Shown: piece by piece, positions 1-53,919 of the stretch
Layout of the letters: each line of letters starts with the position of its first letter
How positions within the stretch are numbered: the first letter of the stretch is position 1
Origin: an uncultured Gemmatimonadales bacterium
GTDB lineage: Bacteria > Gemmatimonadota > Gemmatimonadetes > Gemmatimonadales > GWC2-71-9
Reading direction: 5' to 3'
Assembly (NCBI GenBank): GCA_963844035.1
Contig: CAWJMT010000012.1
Location: forward strand, 1 to 64,000
Length of the DNA stretch: 64,000 nucleotides
Notes under the pieces: model-generated
Databases searched by the model: none
What the model was told of the DNA's origin: nothing
Seen by the model: the letters and a program-made list of their open reading frames with translations, nothing else
Program-made: the position numbers and the translations under genes

Positions 1-75
1 TCGCCTTTACATCTTCCCGCGCCCGGACTATGGTCATTGCACCGAAACCCATCGCTCGCCGGCGAGGAGGCCCTG

Positions 76-189
76 ATGTACCAACGCATCCTGCTCGCCT
101 ACGACGGCTCAGAATCCAATCAGAAGGCGCTGCTCGAAGGCCATGACATTGCGCAGTGGAGCAATGCCCAGATGTATGCCGTCGCCGCT
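76..189 (+). other. N-terminal fragment of a universal stress protein (UspA family), truncated at a chimeric junction
   Basis: GAGGAGG RBS at 64-70, ATG at 76; MYQRILLAYDGSESNQKALLEGHDIAQWSNAQMYAVAA is a typical USP N-terminus; similarity stops near 189. Confidence 0.7.
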
Positions 190-859: not shown

Positions 860-1687
860 CGCGTCTCGGCCAGCACTTTCTCGCCGATCGCAACCTGCTC
901 AACAAGATCGTCGCCGCGCTCGATCCGGCGCCGGACGACGTCGTGATCGAAATCGGACCGGGGGAGGGGAGTCTCACGCGCATCCTGGCGCCGCTCGTGC
1001 AACGGGTGGTCGCGATCGAAACGGATCGCGGTTTTGGCGGAGCAACTGCGACTGCGGTGTCAGGTGTCGGGTGTCAGGTGTCAGGTGGTGACGGGTGACG
1101 CCCTCGAGCTTGATTGGCACGAGCTGTCGTCCGGACACCTGACACCTGACACCCGACACCGCCTTTCTTCACCTGACACCCGACACCGTCTTAAGGTTAT
1201 CGGCAACATCCCCTACTACATCACATCGCCGTTGATCGAGAAAGCGCTGACTCCTCCTCTCCCGGCGTGTGTCGTATTTCTCGTGCAGCGCGAGGTTGCC
1301 GACCGGCTCGCGGCCCCGCCGGGGAGCAAGCGGTATGGGGCGCTCTCGGTGGGGGTGCAGGCGGTGTGCCGGGTGGAGAAGCTGTTCGTCGTGAAGGCCG
1401 GCGCGTTTCGTCCTGCACCGCGGGTGGACAGCGCGGTCGTGCGGTTTACGCCGCTCCCCGATCCCTGGATCACAGCCGCCGAAACGGCGGCGTTTCGGGT
1501 GTTCGTCACCGCCTGCTTCAGCCGTCGCCGCAAGCAGTTGCGCAACGCGGTCATGGCGGCGACGGGCCGGCCGGCGGCGGAGGTGAGCGCACTTTTGAAG
1601 GCACTCGAGCTCCCGCCGACGGCGCGGCCCGAGACGCTGGCACCTGAGGTATTTGTGCGACTCTTGCGCGCGAGCCCTGCATTGTGA
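856..1687 (+). CDS. rsmA: 16S rRNA m6,6A dimethyltransferase KsgA/RsmA (frameshift near 1032; in-frame repeat inserts)
   Basis: GTG overlapping the upstream TGA; LGQHFL, VIEIGPGEG, GDAL, GNIPYYIT, FRPAPRVDSAVV across ORFs 37..1098 and 1034..1687. Confidence 0.93.
1056..1187. repeat. Inverted heptamer arrays (GGTGTCA)4 ... (TGACACC)4+2 inside rsmA
   Basis: Units at 1056-1087, reverse-complement units at 1134-1160 and 1170-1187. Confidence 0.95.
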
Positions 1688-3597: not shown

Positions 3598-4409
3598 GCG
3601 GGCTTGCCGCGTTCCCTAGTTCGAGCCTCGCGAACCGCGCGGCGGCGTATCTCGAGGCCGGCCCTGCCTCGAGCATCGCGCTGGTACGAGACGTCCTGGG
3701 GCTGGGGGCGACCCCGCGCGCACTGGCGGCCAAGATTGCCCAGGCCCTGGTGGGTGGGGATCCCCGGGTGGCCCAGACGCCCGAGGGCCGCTGGGCGCTC
3801 GTCGGAACGGCGAGCGACGCGGTCAGTCCCGACCTCAGTGCGTGCCGGTTCGCCGTGGTGGATGTCGAAACCACGGGCGGCAGCGTCCGGACCGGCGGCC
3901 GCATTGTGGAGATCGCCGTGGTCGCGCTCGACGGCACTTCGCCGCGTGTGGAATTTCAGAGCCTCGTGAATCCCGGCGTGCCTCTTTCTCCGTTCGTTTC
4001 CAGGCTGACGGGAATCAGCGACGCGGCCGTGCGTGCCGCGCCACGATTCGAGGAGATCGCGGACGCGGTGCTCGGGAGTCTGGCGGGGAGCGTGTTCGTG
4101 GCGCACAGCGTGCGGTTCGACTGGGGGTTCATCGCCGCGGAGCTCGAGCGCACACGCGGCGTGCTGCTGCAGGGCCCCCGCCTCTGCACGGTCAAGCTCG
4201 CCCGCCGCTTCCTGCCCCCGCTCGACAGCCGCAACTTGGACAGCGTGGCGGACTTCCTCGGCATCACGATCGAGGGTCGCCATCGCGCCACCGGAGATGC
4301 AGTGGCGACTGCGCGGATTTTCGGGAAGGTGCTTGCGATCGCACGCGAGCGGGGTGCCGTGACCTTACGGGATCTGGCTCAGCTCCCCCCTAACCGCCTA
4401 ACCGTCTAA
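3594..4409 (+). CDS. DEDDh 3'-5' exonuclease (DnaQ/Pol III epsilon-like)
   Basis: VVDVETTG, LTGI, VAHSVRFD, HRATGDA; GTG start overlaps the arcA stop. Confidence 0.88.
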   Translation: MSGLAAFPSSSLANRAAAYLEAGPASSIALVRDVLGLGATPRALAAKIAQALVGGDPRVAQTPEGRWALVGTASDAVSPDLSACRFAVVDVETTGGSVRTGGRIVEIAVVALDGTSPRVEFQSLVNPGVPLSPFVSRLTGISDAAVRAAPRFEEIADAVLGSLAGSVFVAHSVRFDWGFIAAELERTRGVLLQGPRLCTVKLARRFLPPLDSRNLDSVADFLGITIEGRHRATGDAVATARIFGKVLAIARERGAVTLRDLAQLPPNRLTV

Positions 4410-4415
4410 CCGCCT
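4389..4415. repeat. Octamer array (TAACCGYC)3 at the exonuclease/MBL gene boundary
   Basis: TAACCGCC TAACCGTC TAACCGCC; the third unit supplies the TAA stop at 4407-4409. Confidence 0.85.
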
Positions 4416-5496: not shown

Positions 5497-6051
5497 CTGG
5501 CAATCGAAAGCAGCAGCAGCAGCAGCAGCAACAGCAACAGCAGCAAAGTGCCGCGGACGCGGGTGAACCGGCAGATCCGCATCAGTCCTCTTCGGGTCAT
5601 CGCACCCGACGGCGAGCAGTTGGGAGTCATGACCGTGGACGAAGCCCTGGCTGCCGCGTTGCAGCGGGGTCTCGATCTGGTCGAAGTGGCGCCGCTGGCG
5701 CGCCCCCCCGTGGTCAAGATCATGGACTACGGCAAGTTCAAGTTCGAGCAGGCGAAGGCGGCCCGGGCGGCGAAGAAAAAGCAGCACATCATCCAGCTCA
5801 AGGAAGTGAAGTTCCGTCCCGGAATCGACGATCACGATTTCGATTTCAAGACGCGGCATGCGCGCGAGTTTCTGGGTGACGGCAACAAGGTGAAGGTGAC
5901 GATGATGTTCCGCGGCCGGCAGATGGCGCACATCGATCTCGGCCGCGATGTGCTCGATCGGGTCGCGAGCGAGCTGAAAGACATCGCGAAGATCGAGCAG
6001 GATCCGAAGCTTGAAGGCCGCAACATGTCGATGGTGCTGGCCCCGAAATAA
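5497..6051 (+). CDS. infC: Translation initiation factor IF-3 (non-canonical start, CTG 5497 or ATC 5503)
   Basis: RVNRQIR, LDLVEVAP, PPVVKIMDYGKFKF, KEVKFRP; GGAGG at 5482-5486 with no in-frame ATG nearby. Confidence 0.96.
   Translation: MAIESSSSSSSNSNSSKVPRTRVNRQIRISPLRVIAPDGEQLGVMTVDEALAAALQRGLDLVEVAPLARPPVVKIMDYGKFKFEQAKAARAAKKKQHIIQLKEVKFRPGIDDHDFDFKTRHAREFLGDGNKVKVTMMFRGRQMAHIDLGRDVLDRVASELKDIAKIEQDPKLEGRNMSMVLAPK
5509..5544. repeat. (AGC/AAC)12 trinucleotide microsatellite encoding SSSSSSSNSNSS in IF-3
   Basis: Read directly from the sequence. Confidence 0.9.
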
Positions 6052-6124
6052 AGGTGCCAGGTGTCAGGTGCCAGGTGCCAGCAAGGCACTTCCTGACACC
6101 TGACACCTGACACCTGACACCTGA
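6052..6124. repeat. Inverted heptamer arrays (GGTGYCA)4 ... (CCTGACA)4 between infC and rpmI
   Basis: Left arm 6053-6081, right arm 6092-6124. Confidence 0.97.
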
Positions 6125-7735: not shown

Positions 7736-10143
7736 TCGTGTCGCAGCGCTGGCTCGAAGCCATGCTGGGACGCGCGCTGGACCCACGCGACCTGGAGCAC
7801 CGGCTCAGCATGCTGGGTGCTCCGGTCGAGAGCGTCGTGCCGCTCCACCAGGACCTGGGCGACGTGCTGATCGCGGAAGTGCTCGAGGCCAAGAAGCACC
7901 CCAACGCCGACCGGCTCTCCCTCTGCCTCGTCAATGCCGGCTGGGCGAGCCCGGTCGAAGTGGTGTGCGGCGCCCCGAACGTCCAGGCGGGAAAGAAGTA
8001 TCCCTACGCACCCGTCGGGGCCGTGCTCCCTGGCGGGCTCAAGCTCGAGCGCAGGAAAATCCGCGGCGTCGAATCGAACGGCATGCTCTGCTCCGCGAAG
8101 GAGCTGGGACTGGGCGAGGACCACGCGGGGATCATGCAGCTCGACACCGACGCGGCCCCCGGCACACGGTTTCTCGACGTCGTTCCCATCGCCGACCATC
8201 AGGTCGTGATCGAGGTGACCGCGAACCGCCCCGACCTGCTGTGCCACAAGGGCGTGGCGCGAGAGCTGGGGGCGTCGCTCGGGGCGGTGGTGAAGCTGCC
8301 GGAGATACCAGGCGGGAAGGCGGGAGGGCGGGAGGCGGCCAGCGCACCTCCCGCCTTCCCGCCTTCCCGCCCGTGGTACCGTCGACGGCGTCGAGATCCG
8401 TCTCGAGGACGCCGAAGGTTGCCCCCGCTACATGGCCGCGGTCATTCGCGGCGTTCGGGTCGACAAGAGCCCCGCGTGGCTCGCCCAACGACTCGCGAGC
8501 ATCGGGCAGCGGTCGATCAACAACGTCGTCGACGCGACCAACTACATCCTGTTCGAGCTGAACCAGCCGCTGCACGCGTTCGATCTGGCCAAGCTGCGCG
8601 GCCCGGCCGTGGTCATCCGGCGGGCGCGCGCCAACGAGAAGATCGTCACGCTGGACGGGGTGGGGCGCACGCTCACACCGGAGATGACCGCCATCTGCGA
8701 CGCCGAGCGGCCGACGATCATCGCGGGCGTCATGGGAAGCGCCGAATCCGAAGTGTCGGCCACCACGACTGACCTCGTGCTCGAGTGCGCCTTTTTCGAG
8801 CCGACGCGGATCCGCCGCACCCGCCGCGCGCTCGAGCTGTCGAGCGAGTCGAGCTACCGGTTCGAGCGCGGCATCGACATGGCCGGGCATGCCCGACGCG
8901 TTGCGCCGTGCGATCGAGCTGATCGTCGCGGTCGCGGGGGGCGAGGTGCGGGAGCCACCGCTCGATCTCTGGCCGGCGCCGATCGAGGAGCGGACGATCT
9001 TCTTGCGTCCCGAGCGCGTGGGGCACCTGCTGGGCATGACGGTGGAGCGTCCCGAAATCGAGCGCATCCTCTCCTCGGTCGGCTTTTTCGTCGCGCCGAA
9101 GGACGCGCGCCTGGCGGTGCAGATTCCCGGCTGGCGGCCCGATGTGACGCGCGAGGTGGACCTGATCGAGGAAGTCGCGCGCCTCAAGGGGTACGACGCG
9201 TTCCCGGACGAGCTTCGTCCCTATCGACCCGGCACCGTTCCCGATGCGCCCGTCGAGCGCGCCAAAGCGGCAGGTGCGCGCGTCCCTCGCGCAGGCCGGG
9301 TTCTACGAAGCACGCACCTTCCCCCTGGGCCCCGCCGACGGGCCCGACGCGATCGCCGTCTTGAACCCCATGTCCGCCGAGGAGGGGCACCTGCGAACCC
9401 GGCTGCTGCCCGGCCTCGTACGTCGGGTGGAGCACAACTGGTCCGGCCGCACGAGGGATATTCGGTTGTTCGAGGTCGGCACCGTTTTCCGGCTGGGGAC
9501 GGGGGACGGGGGAAGGGGGAAGGGTGCACCCGAGGAGTGGATCTCCGTGGCGGGGGTGCTGACTGGCGCCCGGCGGCCGCCGCACTGGACGGAGGGTGCG
9601 AAAGTACCTGATATGGACTTATGGGACCTCAAATATCACTTTGGGTTAGCTGTCGGCCTGGCATCCCCCTCCAGTAGCGTTCGCGCCGCGGGAAATGGGG
9701 CAGGATGGGAGGCGGTTGGGCCGGACAACACGGTGGTGGGTTGGGCAGGCGCGCTCGAGGGCGATGCGCCGGTGTGGGCCGCCCCGCTGTTCGGTTTCGA
9801 AGTGCGCCTGACGTTGGATGACCGCCCACCGGTCCGCTACCGGCCGCTGCCGCAGACGCCGGCGGTGGAGCGCGACCTGGCGCTGGTCCTGCCGGCTGGT
9901 GTGACGGCGGCGGCCGTGGAGGAAGTGCTGCGGAAGCACGCCGGGCCGTTGCTCGACACGCTGACGGTATTCGACGAGTACCGCGGGCCCGGAATTGCGG
10001 CCGACCATCGCAGCGTTGGATGGCGCTGCTCGTTCCGCGATCCCGGCCGGACGCTGCGGGAGAACGAGGTGGATACGATCCTCGCGGCGGCATTGCAGGC
10101 CCTGGAGGCTGACCTTGGCGTACGACGGCGAGCAGCGGGTTGA
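7732..10143 (+). CDS. pheT: Phenylalanine--tRNA ligase beta subunit (frameshifts near 8375, 8885, 9268)
   Basis: HPNADRL, VVCGAPN, ESNGMLCS, TANRPD, NNVVDATNY, SYRFERG, DLIEEVAR, C-terminal RDLALV across four ORFs. Confidence 0.95.
8310..8373. repeat. Inverted octamer arrays (AGGCGGGA)3 ... (TTCCCGCC)3 inside pheT
   Basis: Encodes GGKAGGREAASAPPAFPPSRP. Confidence 0.88.
9495..9524. repeat. G-rich heptamer array (GGGGAMG)4 inside pheT
   Basis: GGGGACG GGGGACG GGGGAAG GGGGAAG encodes GTGDGGRGKG. Confidence 0.9.
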
Positions 10144-29488: not shown

Positions 29489-29920
29489 TTACCTCGGCAC
29501 CCGGGGATCCGGGACCCCGGTGCATATCGCTTGTTCGGGGTCCTGCTCGCAATCGCCGGGCGGCCCGGCAATGGACACGATGGTCGCGCTTTGGCCGTTC
29601 GACCCGACGCCGACAAGAAATGCGGCCATGCCGATGGTAATGCCGCCAATCAACAGCGCCGTGCGCATAGGGGCGTTCGACTGCACGCGCACGTCCTTGA
29701 CCCGGGCGCTGGGCATCTTCTCGCGGTGCCGGCCGACGTACCCCACCAGCGTGTCGCGCACGATCTTGGGCTCGTACATGAGCGTGACCGACTGGTCATG
29801 CTCCGTCAGCCAGACGCGCTCCGGTGCCATGAGGGTCATCTGGTCCAGGGTCACGGACTTCATCCTGCTGCACGCGGCGCTCGCGAGGGTCGCGAGGAGC
29901 AGGGCGCAGATGATTTTCAC
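29489..29920 (-). CDS. Uncharacterised lipoprotein, tandem paralogue 3
   Basis: GTG start coupled to the upstream stop; LASAAC lipobox; shared core, TM helix, CEQDPEQAIC. Confidence 0.82.
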   Translation of the reverse strand: MKIICALLLATLASAACSRMKSVTLDQMTLMAPERVWLTEHDQSVTLMYEPKIVRDTLVGYVGRHREKMPSARVKDVRVQSNAPMRTALLIGGITIGMAAFLVGVGSNGQSATIVSIAGPPGDCEQDPEQAICTGVPDPRVPR

Positions 29921-30342
29921 TGTGGGGTCCCGCTGCAGATCTCTTGCTCGGGATGCTTGTCGCAATCGCCAGGCGCGCCGGCCATAGTTGTCGTTGGTGT
30001 CTGACTTGTGCCGTTCCCCGAAACAGCGACCAGCATGCCGACGAAGCCGACGGTGAGGCCGCCCACCAATAGCGCGGTGCGTGCGGGGGCCTTCGTCTGG
30101 ACGCGCACCTGCTTGACCCCGGCGCTCGGCAACTTCTCCCTGTGCTTGCCGACGTACCCCACCAACGTGTCGCGCACGACCTTGGGCTCGTACAGGAGCA
30201 CGACCGATTCGTCGCTCTCCGTCACCCAGACGCGCTCGGGTCCGAGGTGGCTCATCTGGTCCAGCGTAACGGTCCTCATCCTCGAGCAGGCAGCGCTCGC
30301 GAGGGTCGTGAGGAGCAGGGCGCAGATGATCGGACGCGTCAT
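29917..30342 (-). CDS. Uncharacterised lipoprotein, tandem paralogue 2
   Basis: ATGA overlap; LASAAC lipobox; shared core, TM helix, CDKHPEQEIC. Confidence 0.82.
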   Translation of the reverse strand: MTRPIICALLLTTLASAACSRMRTVTLDQMSHLGPERVWVTESDESVVLLYEPKVVRDTLVGYVGKHREKLPSAGVKQVRVQTKAPARTALLVGGLTVGFVGMLVAVSGNGTSQTPTTTMAGAPGDCDKHPEQEICSGTPQ

Positions 30343-30755
30343 TCGGGAACCCCGGTGCAGATGGTCTGCTCGGGGTCGATGTCGCAATAACCAGCCGGGC
30401 CGGTCGTGGACGTGATGGGCGCGCTTTCGCCGGTTCCGCTACTGAGGACAGCGAACCCGATGAAGCCGGCCGCGATGCCGCCCACCAACAGCGCGGTGCG
30501 GGCGGGGGCCTTCGACTGCACGCGCACGTCCTTGACCCGGGCACTGGACATCTTCTCGCGGTGCCGGCCGACGTATCCCACCACCGTGTCGCGCACGATC
30601 TTGGGCTCGTACATGAGCGTGACCGACTGGTCTTGCTCCGTTATCCAGACACGCTCTGGTCCCATAAGGGTCATCTGGTCCAGTGTCACGGACTTCATCG
30701 TCTTGCAGCCAGTGCTCGCCACGGCGGCGAGGAGGAGGCAGATGAACAGACGCAC
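30339..30755 (-). CDS. Uncharacterised lipoprotein, tandem paralogue 1
   Basis: AGAGGT RBS plus GTG; ASTGC lipobox; shared core, TM helix, CDIDPEQTIC. Confidence 0.82.
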   Translation of the reverse strand: MRLFICLLLAAVASTGCKTMKSVTLDQMTLMGPERVWITEQDQSVTLMYEPKIVRDTVVGYVGRHREKMSSARVKDVRVQSKAPARTALLVGGIAAGFIGFAVLSSGTGESAPITSTTGPAGYCDIDPEQTICTGVPE

Positions 30756-35545: not shown

Positions 35546-36243
35546 TTCCGCGCGTCATTGCGATCGATGGGCCAGCCGCGTCAGGGAAATCATCGACCGC
35601 GGCGGCGGTGGCGCGTCAGCTGGGGTGGGGACATTTCGACTCGGGAGCGTTGTACCGGGCAATTACTCTGGCAGCGCTCGACAACTTGGGGGAAGCGGGA
35701 AGGGGGAAGGGGGACGAGTGGTCGCCGCAGCGGATTTTGGCGCTCGCGGAAGACCTCCCGGTACGGCTGGTGCTGGTGAACGATGTGTTCAGGCCCGAGA
35801 TCGCGGGCGTGGACGTCGCGAAGGCGATTCGTGCGGAGCGGGTGACCGAGCGGGTCTCCGGGGTAGCCGCGGTGCCGCAGGTGCGCGCCTGGGTGAACGC
35901 CCGTCAGCGCCAGGCCGTCCTCGATCATCCCCGCGGCGTGGTGGTGGACGGCCGCGACATCGGCACGGTGGTGTTTCCCGACGCTCCGCTCAAGGTGTTT
36001 CTCACCGCCAGTCCGGAAGAGCGGGCGCGGCGCCGGCTGCTGCAACGCCGGGAGCCGGTCAACCCGGCGGACGTGCAGCGGGAGGCGGCGATCCTCGCGG
36101 AACGGGATCGCGCCGACTCGACGCGCGCTGTGGCACCCCTCAAACCCGCCGCCGACGCTGTGGGTCTGGACACGACTTCGATGGACCAAGCCCAACAGGT
36201 GAGCCACGTTGTGGCGCTGGCGCGCGACCGCCTCCCCGGCTAG
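35542..36243 (+). CDS. cmk: Cytidylate kinase
   Basis: IAIDGPAASGKS, DSGALYR, DGRDIGTVVFP. Confidence 0.96.
   Translation: MIPRVIAIDGPAASGKSSTAAAVARQLGWGHFDSGALYRAITLAALDNLGEAGRGKGDEWSPQRILALAEDLPVRLVLVNDVFRPEIAGVDVAKAIRAERVTERVSGVAAVPQVRAWVNARQRQAVLDHPRGVVVDGRDIGTVVFPDAPLKVFLTASPEERARRRLLQRREPVNPADVQREAAILAERDRADSTRAVAPLKPAADAVGLDTTSMDQAQQVSHVVALARDRLPG
35688..35716. repeat. G-rich heptamer array (SGGGAMG)4 inside cmk
   Basis: GGGGAAG CGGGAAG GGGGAAG GGGGACG encodes GEAGRGKGD. Confidence 0.85.
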
Positions 36244-38060: not shown

Positions 38061-38198
38061 TAGACGCACAGACGCATAGACGCACAGACGGTGAATAGCG
38101 AAAGGGGGACAGGACAGGTCTGTCCCCCTTTCTTACTGTTTACCACTATGCGTCTATGCGCCTATGCGTCTGCCTATGCGCCTGTGCGTCTATGCCCC
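38061..38198. repeat. Inverted octamer arrays (YAGACGCA)4 ... (TATGCGYC)~6 surrounding the rpsA terminator
   Basis: Left arm 38061-38092, right arm 38147-38198. Confidence 0.93.
38100..38134 (+). terminator. Intrinsic terminator after rpsA
   Basis: GAAAGGGGGACAG-GACAGGT-CTGTCCCCCTTTC-TT. Confidence 0.8.
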
Positions 38199-38213
38199 TA
38201 GATTCTGTCCACT

Positions 38214-40679: not shown

Positions 40680-42193
40680 ATGATTGATTTCACCCGAGTG
40701 CTGGTCGCGAACCGCGGCGAGATCGCGCTCCGCATCATCCGCGCCTGCCACGAGGAGGGCCTCGAGGCGGTGGCGGTCTATTCCGAGGCCGACCGCTTGT
40801 CTCCGCACGTGCGCGCGGCCGACCGCGCCGTGCCCATCGGTCCCGCGCCCGCGATTGACTCGTACCTGAACATCGGGGCGCTGCTCGAAGCCGCCCGCGC
40901 CACCGGCTGCGAAGCGGTGCATCCCGGCTACGGGTTCCTCTCGGAGCGGGCGCCGTTCGCGGAGGCCGTGGAGCGGGCCGGTCTGGTGTTTGTCGGGCCG
41001 TCGCCCGAGGCGATGCGCGCCATGGGCGACAAGACCGAAGCGCGGCGGCGCATGCAGGCCGCCGGCGTGCCGATCGTGCCGGGCTCCACCCAACCCGTCA
41101 GCGACCTGCATCAGGCCGGCGTTCAGGCGGGGCGGATCGGATTTCCGGTGCTGCTCAAGGCGGCGGCCGGCGGCGGCGGCAAGGGGATGCGTCTGGTGCG
41201 CGACGCCGCGGAGCTCGCATCGGCATTCGAGGCGGCGCGCAGCGAAAGCCTGAAGGCGTTCGGCGCCGACGACGTCTACATCGAGAAATATCTGGAGGCC
41301 CCGCGGCACATCGAGGTCCAGGTGTTGGCCGACACGCACGGCCGGATCATCTCGCTGGGCGAGCGGGAGTGCAGCGTCCAGCGCCGCTACCAGAAGCTGA
41401 TCGAGGAAGCGCCGTCGGTGGCCGTGTCGCCGGCTCTGCGCCGCCGTTTGGGCGAAGCGGCCACCGCGGCCGCGGGGTCGGTCGGCTACGTCGGCGCGGG
41501 CACGATCGAGTTCCTGCTGACGGCGAACGGCACCTTCTATTTCCTCGAGATGAACACCCGCATCCAGGTCGAGCACCCCGTCACCGAGCTCGTGTACGGC
41601 GTCGACCTGGTGCGCGAGCAGCTGCGGATCGCCGCCGGCAAGCCGATGCGGGTCCATGCGGGGACTCTCAATCCGCGCGGCCACGCGATCGAATGCCGCA
41701 TCACGGCCGAAGACCCGTTCAACGATTTCCTCCCGGCGACCGGGGTGATCCAGTACCTGCGCGTGCCGGGCGGTGCGGGAGTGCGTTGGGACGGCGGCGT
41801 GGAGTCGGGGCAGGAGATCACGCCTGTACTACGATCCGCTGCTCGGGAAGCTGATCGTGTGGGCGGAATCCCGCGAAGTGGCGATCCGGCGCATGGTGCG
41901 GGCGCTGCGCGAGCTGGTGATCGTGGGCCTGCCGACGTCGCAGCCGTTTCACCTCCTGGTGATGGACGATCCCGGGTTTCAACGCGGGGAGCTCGACATC
42001 ACCTACCTCGACCGCTTTGGGCTGGGGCACCTGCCGCAGGGCACGCGGGAGGAGCTGGTCCGTCCCGCTCGCGGTGGTCGCCGCGCTGCTGGCTGAGGAG
42101 CGCCGCACGGAAACTCGCTCGACGACCGCCCGACCGCCCGACCGCCTGTCCGCCTGGGTTGTTGAGGGGCTGCGGGAAGGTTTGCGCGAATGA
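40680..42193 (+). CDS. accC: Biotin carboxylase subunit (frameshifts near 41823, 42062)
   Basis: LVANRGEIALR, HPGYGFLSE, AGGGGKGMR, RECSVQRR, FLEMNTRIQVEHPVTE, YYDPLLGKL. Confidence 0.95.
42123..42155. repeat. Octamer array (CGACCGCC)3-TGTCCGCC in the accC 3' end
   Basis: Read directly; encodes TARPPDRLSA. Confidence 0.85.
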
Positions 42194-46412: not shown

Positions 46413-46485
46413 CAGGTGTCAGGTGTGAGGTGCCAGGTGTCAGGTTTCTGAAACCCTGACACCTGAAACCCGACACCTGACACCT
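46413..46485. repeat. Inverted heptamer arrays (CAGGTGT)5 ... (CCTGACA)4 between rpsI and rpsB
   Basis: Left arm 46413-46447, right arm 46455-46485. Confidence 0.95.
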
Positions 46486-48167: not shown

Positions 48168-48905
48168 GTGGCATCTACCCCCAAGCTCGCGTACCCGCGC
48201 GCGCTCCTCAAGATTTCGGGTGAGGGGTTCGCGGGGGAGCGATCGGGGGCGACGGCGGGAGCCGGGATCGACTTCGGCGTCATCGAGCGGCTGACCGACG
48301 AGCTGAAGAGCGTGGCCTCGCTGGGCGTGCAGCTCGGCCTCGTGGTGGGCGGGGGCAACATTCTGCGCGGCACCACCGCCAGCCAGCAGGGGATGGACCG
48401 CGTCTCGGCGGACTACATGGGGATGCTCGCGACGGTGATCAACGCGCTCGCCCTCCAGGACATGCTGGAGAAGAAGGGCGTGGATACGCGGGTGATGACG
48501 GCGATCCGCATGGAAGAGCTGGCCGAGCCCTACATCCGGCGCCGGGCGCTGCGCCACCTCGAGAAGGGCCGGGTGGTGATCTTCGCGGGCGGGACCGGCA
48601 ACCCGTACTTTTCCACCGACACCGCGGCGGTGCTGCGCGCGCTCGAGATCGAAGCCCGCGTGCTGCTCAAGGCCACGAACGTGGACGGCGTCTTCACCGC
48701 CGACCCCAAACGAGACCCCAAGGCCAAGTTCATTCCGGAGCTGTCGTTCCAGGAGGCGATCGTGAACGGGTACGCCGTGATGGACGCCAATGCGTTCGGT
48801 CTGTGCAAGGAGAACCGGTTGCCGATTGTCGTGTTCAATATCAACCAGCCCGGCGCGACCGCCAAAGTGCTGGCGGGTGAGCGCGTCGGCACGATCGTCC
48901 AATGA
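48168..48905 (+). CDS. pyrH: UMP kinase
   Basis: [37 protein letters not shown]. Confidence 0.97.
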
Positions 48906-49454
48906 CCCTCGCCGACGACGCCAAACACGTCAAGCAGCTGATGGGCAAGGCCGTGGACGCGGTCAGGCGCGAGTTCGCGACCGTGCGCACCGGGAAGGCG
49001 AGCGACCGCGCTGCTCGATCTCGTCCGCGTGGACGCGTACGGCAGCGAGATGCCGCTGAACCAGGTGGCCAGCGTGTCGGCCCCGGAGCCGCGCCTGCTG
49101 ACCGTGCAGCCCTGGGACCGCGGCCTGATCAAGGCCGTCGAGAAGGCGATCATGACGTCGGACCTGGGATTGACCCCGTCGAGCGACGGCCAGCTGATCC
49201 GCATCCCCCTGCCGCCGCTGACCGAGGAGCGGCGCAAGGAGCTGGTGAAGGTCGTGCATCGCTTCGCCGAGGAGGGGCGCGTCGCGATCCGCCACGCGCG
49301 CACCGAGGGGATCAGCAAGATCAAGAAGACCGAGCACGTCTCCGACGACGAGAAGAAGCACGCCGAGAAGGAAATCCAGAAGCTGCACGACGATCACATC
49401 AAGCACGTCGAAGAGATCTTGAAGGCCAAGGAGGCCGAGATCCTCGAGGTCTAA
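48902..49454 (+). CDS. frr: Ribosome recycling factor (frameshift near 49003)
   Basis: [36 protein letters not shown]. Confidence 0.96.
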
Positions 49455-51054: not shown

Positions 51055-52180
51055 CCACGGGCGTGGCGGTGCTCGGCTCCACCGGGTCGATCGGCACCTC
51101 GGCGCTGCAGGTGCTCGCCCGCCAGCGCGAGCGCTTCCGGGTGGTCGCCTTGACCGCTCACTCGAATGCCGGCCTGCTCGACCACCAGGCAAAGGAGTGG
51201 CAGCCGGCGTATGTCGGGATCGTCAATGGCGGGACGGGGGACGGGGGACGGGGGAAGGGTACGGCATGCCTTGTGGAAGCCGCCACGCGACCTGACGTTG
51301 ATATTGTCATCAACGGCATCGTGGGTGCGGCCGGGCTCGAGGCGACGCTCGCCGCATTGTGCGCCGGGAAACGGGTGGCGCTCGCCAACAAGGAGAGTCT
51401 GGTGATGGCCGGCGAGCTGGTCACGCGCGCCGCGCGCCAGGGGGGCGGTGAGATCGTACCGGTGGACTCGGAGCACAGCGCCGTGCTGCAGTGTCTCACC
51501 GGGCGCAGGCCCGGCGACGTCGCCAGCCTGACGCTGACCGCCTCTGGGGGCCCGTTCCGCACCTGGACGCCGGAGCGCGTAGCCGACGCCACGATCGAAG
51601 CGGCGCTCCAGCACCCGACGTGGCGGATGGGCCGCAAGATCACGGTGGACTCCGCGACGCTCGTCAACAAGGCCCTCGAGGTGATCGAAGCGCACTACCT
51701 GTTCGGCGTCGAGTACGACCAAGTCAGGGTCGTGGTGCATCCGCAGTCGCTCGTGCACGCGCTGGTCGAGTTCGTGGACGGATCGGTGTTGGCCCAGATC
51801 GGATTTCCAACGATGGAGGTACCGATTCTGTACGCGCTGACCCACCCGGAGCGTGTCCCTGACGACGGCACGCGCCGCTTCGACCCCGTGGCCGCCGAGA
51901 CACTCACCTTCGAGCCGGTGCGCCACGAGCTGTACCCCGCGTACCAGCTGGGGCGCGAGGCGGCGCTCGCCGCGGGGGACGCTGCCGGCGGCGTTCAACG
52001 CGGCGAACGAAGTCGCCGTGCAGCGGTTTCTCGACGGCAAGATCCGCTTCGGCCAGATCGCGCGCATCATCGACGCGGTGCTGACGGACGACGCAGTCGG
52101 GGGACGCTCAGTCCCTGGACGGCGTTCTGGCCGCCGACGCCGAGGCACGGCGGATGGCCTGGGAGGTCGCATGCTCCTGA
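51051..52180 (+). CDS. dxr: 1-deoxy-D-xylulose-5-phosphate reductoisomerase (frameshifts near 51972, 52100)
   Basis: LGSTGSIG, LANKESLV, PVDSEH, HPTWRMGRKITVDSAT, NAANE. Confidence 0.96.
51230..51259. repeat. G-rich heptamer array (SGGGAMG)4 inside dxr
   Basis: CGGGACG GGGGACG GGGGACG GGGGAAG encodes GTGDGGRGKG. Confidence 0.9.
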
Positions 52181-53535: not shown

Positions 53536-53919
53536 GCGCGAGCTGGAGGAGTACGTCGCGGGGCGGGGTGGCGAGGCGCGGCTCGTGAGCAGCGGTGATG
53601 GATGCCTACTACCGGGATGGGGGAAGCGGGAAGAGGGAAGCGTTGCGTCCGCTGATCGATGTGATTGAGCGGGCGGCGCCGGGCGTCGTCGAGCTCGCGG
53701 CGGCGGGTGACACGCCGGGGTTCCGGGTGCGCCTCGCCGAGCGCCCGTTCCCGGAGCGGTACGCAGAACGACCTGCGCGCCGCGGCTGGCATGGCGTTGC
53801 AGGCGTGGGGGGCGGAAGCTCCTGCATCCCCTCCACCACCTCCACCTCCTCCATCCCCTCCCAATCGGGGCCTGCTCCAACGCGTGCTGGGCGTTATCCG
53901 GCGCTGGTTCGGCGAATAA
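53519..53919 (+). CDS. Hypothetical protein with Pro-rich linker and amphipathic C-terminus (two frameshifts)
   Basis: Coding signal stitched from ORFs 53369.., 53595.., 53665..53919. Confidence 0.5.
53613..53642. repeat. G-rich heptamer array (NGGGAWG)4
   Basis: CGGGATG GGGGAAG CGGGAAG AGGGAAG. Confidence 0.8.

Follow-up and report, generated by a model that had tools for sequence, protein, structure and literature searches.

The rsmA locus and its hairpin

The window, by which we mean the whole 64,000-nt stretch of DNA analysed, comes from a soil Gemmatimonadales bacterium and carries near its start the rRNA methylase gene rsmA/ksgA (PF00398; 856..1687, + strand), recognised by its open reading frame and family match and split in the assembly by one +1 frameshift. 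Frame analysis and comparison with relatives place the frameshift at a TTTT run (1032..1035, +), about 20 nt 5' of the first of several repeat arrays, and the arrays share the reading frame of RsmA's C-terminal portion. Judged from the sequence, this is likely a long-read assembly error and not a real gene break, because haplotype pairs within the same assembly show many indel differences, the rsmA frames of relatives are open at this place (the exception being G096, an allele with paired arrays that is also broken), a public contig with 93% identity continues in frame past the TTTT position, and the TGA stop slot of the right-arm unit has been edited in 6/6 right arrays of the GGTGTC unit family among rsmA alleles. 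Genome-wide, T stands at that same unit place in 79/98 copies. In four contig sets compared at 80% likeness, no contig bridged the hairpin, and among the sequencing runs examined none contained the source DNA (best share 0.20). The orthologue of G002, which also has a GGTGTC-type unit, scores above the TIGR00755 cut-off.

Repeat detection gave a left arm (1056..1087, +) with the G-rich strand and 4.6 copies of GGTGTC(A/G), one of them a GGTGTCG variant; the initial annotation had described a (GGTGTCA)4 array, and the repeat is present but neither perfect nor of exactly that length. The right arm (1134..1162, +), from repeat detection and a structural model, is the C-rich complement with 3.9 units, lies in a surface loop and has CGA in its TGA slot. 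It is followed by a second, partial right array (1170..1188, +), a frame-preserving 27-nt near-tandem duplication of the end of the first in which the TGA slot again reads CGA, and which was seen in 0/5 related GGTGTC alleles compared. At the left junction, sequence and related alleles reveal a 6-nt direct repeat (1045..1056, +) that adds two codons; a target-site duplication flanking both ends of the block was not found, the 6-nt repeat standing at the left junction alone. The arms are 100% complementary over 25 nt (1063-1087/1136-1160), variant unit included. Folding the mRNA, which the initial annotation had proposed as a check, gave a very stable stem: positions 1040-1200 fold at -88.1 kcal/mol (z -7.7), with 0/200 shuffles as good. 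The translation also reads as first annotated, with RCQVSGVRCQV before VTGDALELDW, and HLTPDTRH and SPDTRH before KVIGNIPY; in-frame translation of the arms is predicted from the open frames of relatives and the avoidance of stops.

Between the arms lies a native rsmA segment (1088..1133, +; orthologue alignment) with a GDAL..W motif, GDAL being at 1094-1105. In 14 orthologues, arm-less ones included, G77-D78-A79-L80 and W84 do not vary, which bears out the view that the hairpin loop is native, conserved RsmA coding sequence, and the GDAL segment aligns with solved RsmA chains. We take its aspartate to contact the adenine of SAM. As the window's own RsmA frame is split, the structure was modelled on the G002 orthologue, which has the same unit (AlphaFold, pLDDT 91.5). 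In this model the right arm falls within loop 90-98, and the left arm runs from the end of a helix through a loop into beta-strand 72-76, of which it makes up the first half. The left side has a median of 27 aa in alleles with paired arms vs 23 aa in arm-less ones, and the right side is longer by a median of 10 aa. With only 4 aa added on the left as against 10 aa on the right, the left arm must mostly replace native residues. The idea that the arms occupy two separate surface loops therefore holds for the right arm, whereas in the G002 model the left arm also forms a helix end and a strand start and is largely a replacement.

Arrays across the genome and among relatives

The rsmA arms are not isolated features. 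The assembly contains 336 arrays of period 7 or 8. Of these, 177 stand alone, lacking a partner within 200 nt, and the others make up 91 inverted pairs whose loops measure 2-121 nt, the G-rich arm coming first in 80/91. The GGTGTC unit of rsmA accounts for 55 arrays, mostly about four units long. Two further hairpins of this unit family lie in the window: an intergenic one with a short loop (6052..6124, +), directly after a gene ending at 6051 that looks like infC, and another at 46413..46485 (+). The loops of other array pairs are unrelated to one another. Strict filtering of the same genome for further in-frame pairs found 4 and missed rsmA itself, so that this number is a lower bound. Arrays of other 7- and 8-mer units, some in inverted pairs, occur in the window at 4389-4415, 8310-8371, 9495-9524, 35688-35714, 38062-38200, 42123-42154, 51231-51264 and 53613-53642.

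Several other repeat and assembly features were observed in passing. The gene ending at 6051 opens with a serine-rich stretch encoded by an (AGC)12 run at 5509-5545, and a tandem repeat of period 419 nt (29640-30738; 2.6 copies, 77% matches) may be real or an assembly artefact. At window positions 1-176, a stress-protein-like start, presumably of the universal stress protein type, runs into a SpoIIE-family phosphatase gene, and contig C23 aligns from 177 only; the contig end is probably chimeric here. Sister haplotypes are mixed in the assembly, where many regions are present twice at 78-99% identity. A second haplotype was available for 17 array loci, and at these the arms and the loop had often been replaced, gained or lost together. 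For rsmA itself the second haplotype lies on contig C23 (~48880-48990), where purine-rich GGGAAG-type arms stand at the same two sites in a copy with several frameshifts.

To follow the locus among relatives, 130 alleles were compiled: 29/30 loci of one match list, the window's own among them, 100 taken from the 150 best matches of a further list, and the haplotype on C23. The sample is biased to the best matches, i.e., close relatives, and omits the truncated L009. Paired arms stand at the same two sites in 67/130 alleles, 7 have the left arm only, 4 the right arm only, 4 are discordant and 48 have none; the one-arm intermediates that the initial annotation suggested seeking in relatives thus exist, although one of the right-only cases is a truncated contig. 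The 67 paired alleles comprise 24 unit types with fixed polarity (G-rich left 71/74, C-rich right 69/71). Units are distributed randomly on the distal-gene tree (49 changes vs a shuffled mean of 50.3), sisters at 91-95% identity carry different units in the left as well as the right arm, and the chimeric allele of G215 has one unit in its left arm and another in its right.

How far one arm templates the other can be judged from variant units. Left-arm variants are mirrored in the right arm in 23/88 cases vs 19/149 in a register shifted by one unit (2/67 paired alleles were left out of this count and of the G-U count below), and mirrored variants are perfect in the window's own allele, G144, G158 and G090. 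A common symmetry axis was found in 26/67 alleles from 6 unit types, a post hoc observation among related alleles. Arm-to-arm templated copying, as first suggested, is real in some alleles, including the one in the window, but is not the whole story across the family.

The unit at rsmA follows that of its genome. Four of the 24 units were counted genome-wide in 44 genomes, 35 of which were informative in having one of the four units and counts. With rsmA's own matches subtracted, the rsmA unit was the top of the four in 26/35, where shuffles gave 9.3 overall and 14.9 within genera and 0/20000 reached 26. G356 matches even in a sub-variant, GGTGTCC being found both in rsmA and genome-wide.

Divergence around the arms and probable transfer of the block

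Compared with the C23 sister haplotype, the arms sit in a tract of raised divergence (990..1285, +), with identity of ~97% upstream, 73-83% in the flanks and ~93% downstream. In 9 sister pairs with different units, synonymous differences were found at 36/60 in the enclosed segment vs 82/493 in the distal gene, a 3.5-fold excess. Eight pairs involving gain, loss or one arm gave 34/50 in the loop vs 104/443 distally, and 3 same-unit pairs show the peak too (10/23 vs 24/163). The synonymous excess fades over ~90 nt on each side of the loop. In the arm-less genus g5, 10 pairs gave 21/94 in the loop vs 232/537 in the distal gene (0.5-fold); identity within these control pairs is lower (80-85%) than within the test pairs (86-95%). 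Arrays compared in 10 sister region pairs lie in a comparable dip, one that intergenic position confounds.

G240 and G397 belong to different genera and have the whole block in common, including 38/39 non-arm core bases against a cross-genus mean of 0.64, with a distal gene that is 72% identical. Both genomes are dominated by the same unit, and each has a 91-93% sister with another unit. G009 and G049 have 35/39 core bases in common and a different unit in both arms, and a shared core without a shared unit points to re-tuning of the arms after transfer. On a larger scale, windows with a closer match in a distant genome than in the sister made up 61/510 of those near arrays vs 60/5997 elsewhere; these windows overlap, and the excess could also arise from one hypermutated sister. 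This test replaced a raw scan for high-identity patches, which was swamped by conserved genes. Trees of local non-arm DNA, from which 3 alleles were left out, bring same-unit alleles together no more than distal trees do (42-45 changes for either kind, ~48 when shuffled), and block transfer is therefore clear in few pairs only. No donor for the window's own rsmA allele was found among the alleles read, the best local identity being 0.83. A route for DNA uptake exists, given that ComEC is present in 196/201 genomes of the family.

On balance, and with slightly better than even confidence, we read the rsmA arms as belonging to a family of inverted four-unit 7-mer arrays found throughout the genome and as occupying two tolerant sites of RsmA round GDAL, with the arm-motif-arm block acting as a hairpin-centred hotspot of allele replacement whose arms are re-tuned to the prevailing unit of the genome. 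Replacement and unit tracking are patterns in the alleles compared; for the trigger, the DNA entry route and the conversion steps, we infer the following course. The extruded hairpin, or a putative protein bound to it, would provoke or favour replacement by a foreign allele through homologous recombination, in which co-conversion reaches 60-100 nt beyond each arm. The arms would then be made uniform through conversion from dispersed copies together with template switching between the two arms, and purifying selection on RsmA would keep the frame, the motif and the absence of stops. When arms were first paired round native DNA, the second was likely copied or deposited beside the first.

A more far-reaching version, which we put forward tentatively, would make the matched heptamer arms a recombination signal that is selfish and specific to a dialect. 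DNA between arms of the genome's favoured word would be preferentially taken up or homed in, and the conserved catalytic-core segment would circulate between species and genera as hairpin cargo. If true, this would amount to a tandem-repeat version of DNA uptake sequences, or to a homing element with a payload of host coding DNA, in many uncultured phyla.

Rewriting in place without gene transfer appears unlikely. Here, extrusion of a hairpin or cruciform would lead to error-prone repair, while slippage, ectopic conversion and template switching would alter the arms and mutate the enclosed DNA. Such a process would suit the perfectly mirrored variants, the common symmetry axis and the match of the rsmA arms to dispersed genomic copies over 35 and 32 nt, and template switching can make and repair hairpins according to PMC8794818. 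Four-fold sites in the loop are also more AT-rich (0.26 vs 0.09-0.11), a shift that fits local mutagenesis as well as import. However, in-place rewriting cannot give 38/39 identical bases across genera, nor the chimeric allele of G215; near the arms, substitutions follow much the same spectrum as in the distal gene, with no adenine bias, and 65/88 left-arm variants are not mirrored.

Candidate drivers, known systems and wider meaning

Whether a dedicated enzyme lies behind the arms was considered next to this hotspot reading. One candidate is a four-helix-bundle (TIGR02436) cassette, to which a writer could be tied that deposits matched arms at two nicks or mobilises DNA between cognate arms. 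In the own genome, seven PF05635/TIGR02436 loci lie between inverted arms, four with clear arrays; the remaining three, whose arms are degenerate, represent a single locus present in three haplotypes. One TIGR02436 gene (own-assembly C27:104536-105106) stands between arms of rsmA's own unit; no TIGR02436 gene lies between the rsmA arms at their locus. The PF05635 gene was found in 76/80 and in 172/201 genomes by two counts, and 25/39 sampled PF05635 cassettes in relatives are bracketed by arms. The near-fixed arm length and polarity would also suit a writer. G003, a 100% complete congener with no PF05635 or ComEC match, has no rsmA arms and only 3 weak array matches vs 20 expected in 210 kb, and in genus g9 only G258 has both PF05635 and paired rsmA arms, the other four genomes having the left arm only, which is one contrast among kin. 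However, those four (G014, G104, G230 and G337; 76-97% complete) have no PF05635 match and yet 31-215 array matches each, with inverted pairs among the array places listed. Moreover, the arm-less g5 has the gene in 8/9 genomes, and the cassette unit is equal or near to the rsmA unit in only ~4/17 genomes of a partial sample. Reverse transcriptase, a possible partner, has 0 matches in the own assembly (84% complete) and is present in only 6/40 relatives, i.e., absent from 34/40. With array-rich g9 genomes having no match to the gene and a cassette unit that seldom equals that of rsmA, the four-helix gene looks like a passenger or helper and not a necessary writer, and we consider a cassette-borne writer improbable.

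Y1 (PF01797), the transposase family covered here, has 4 loci in the own genome, none flanked by heptamer arrays, the DUF559 genes are likewise not flanked by them, and PF13366 gave 0 matches; as resident drivers these three and reverse transcriptase were rejected on absence or want of flanking arrays. Two DUF559 genes (own-assembly C37:35725-36015 and C35:168206-168400) are flanked by long non-periodic inverted repeats of a separate palindromic family. A diversity-generating retroelement was rejected in view of the missing reverse transcriptase in the own assembly and the lack of adenine-specific mutagenesis, and ComEC, which seemed linked from G003 alone, is near-universal in the family (196/201).

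Selection for a long mRNA stem inside rsmA, through pausing, stability or regulation, was the second mechanism raised by the initial annotation, and the very stable fold and the maintenance of pairing across 24 units would fit it. Nevertheless, the mRNA strand shows no excess of G-U (26 vs 42 A-C mismatches), 48/130 alleles are arm-less, close sisters included, and the match of unit to genome is left unexplained, all of which makes this selection very improbable and did not sustain the original suggestion. An origin from one MITE- or RPE-like insertion, or from an error of assembly, is scarcely credible: the arms are inverted and the assembly does have indels and mixed haplotypes, but the loop is native coding sequence and one MITE-like insertion cannot make such a structure, as had been argued from the start, there is no flanking target duplication, and same-unit paired alleles occur in the independent assemblies of G002, G069 and G356.

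The proposed replacement hotspot with heptamer arms has partial parallels. The nearest known system, going by the portion of Rehm et al. (2015; PMC4692102) at hand, is formed by the convergent four-unit heptamer pairs of Xanthomonas (GGGAATC) and Nostoc, with 70 and 75 cases, some of them intragenic; each genome has one unit, and the pairs are interpreted there as G-quadruplex candidates. Common to both are a 7-nt G-rich unit, about four copies and dispersed convergent inverted pairs. Unlike the pairs in that part of the account, the rsmA arms enclose a native coding motif, turn over in unit at orthologous sites and in a few pairs take part in block transfer. The own unit has GG runs only, and other units in the family have GGG or more. 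TAACTGA repeats are described in PMC4679880 as direct, almost none being inverted. Terminal inverted repeats are shared with MITEs, but the loop is native and neither foreign nor common to copies.

Rickettsia palindromic elements and intragenic REPs, as outlined in PMC10969869 and PMC3733652, also place palindromic repeat DNA in frame in a housekeeping gene. They insert whole, with conserved sequence and peptide and a GTAG or CGTC tag, whereas the rsmA locus has two separate arms round host DNA and 24 units at one locus, with sisters that differ. DNA uptake sequences are likewise genome-typical short words in permissive coding sites that arise by recombination against unrelated sequence; according to PMC3630211 and PMC2397512, they are single 10-mers in thousands of copies with a dialect that follows phylogeny. 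The arms described here form tens of tandem arrays per unit (55 of the GGTGTC unit), with several units per genome and differences between sisters, and for them a role in uptake is hypothetical. Template-switch mutation (PMC8794818) can place perfectly reverse-complementary arms on either side of a native spacer, but is not unit-specific and produces neither a fixed arm length or polarity nor a match across the genome. Finally, the cassettes of four-helix-bundle or 23S rRNA IVS proteins (TIGR02436, PF05635), which bear a weak likeness to the Avd of diversity-generating retroelements, have the same kind of arm; no such gene lies between the rsmA arms, there is no reverse transcriptase partner, and arrays persist in genomes that gave no match to the gene. 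Our literature search, with subscription journals mostly outside it, found no report of paired heptamer arms round native coding DNA or of their tie to four-helix-bundle genes.

Long arrays of 7-8-nt repeats are common in bacteria and unexplained, and the rsmA locus allows their dynamics to be measured, with conserved coding sequence on both sides of each arm serving as a ruler. Sister species differ in their arms, which follow the dominant word of the genome and carry a tract of the host gene along with them; this narrows the mechanism to recombination or conversion as against plain slippage, simple insertion or RNA structure. According to the structural model, repeat DNA may also supply part of a beta-strand in the core of an enzyme. 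Caution is warranted where marker genes are concerned, as such hairpins create local mosaicism within them.
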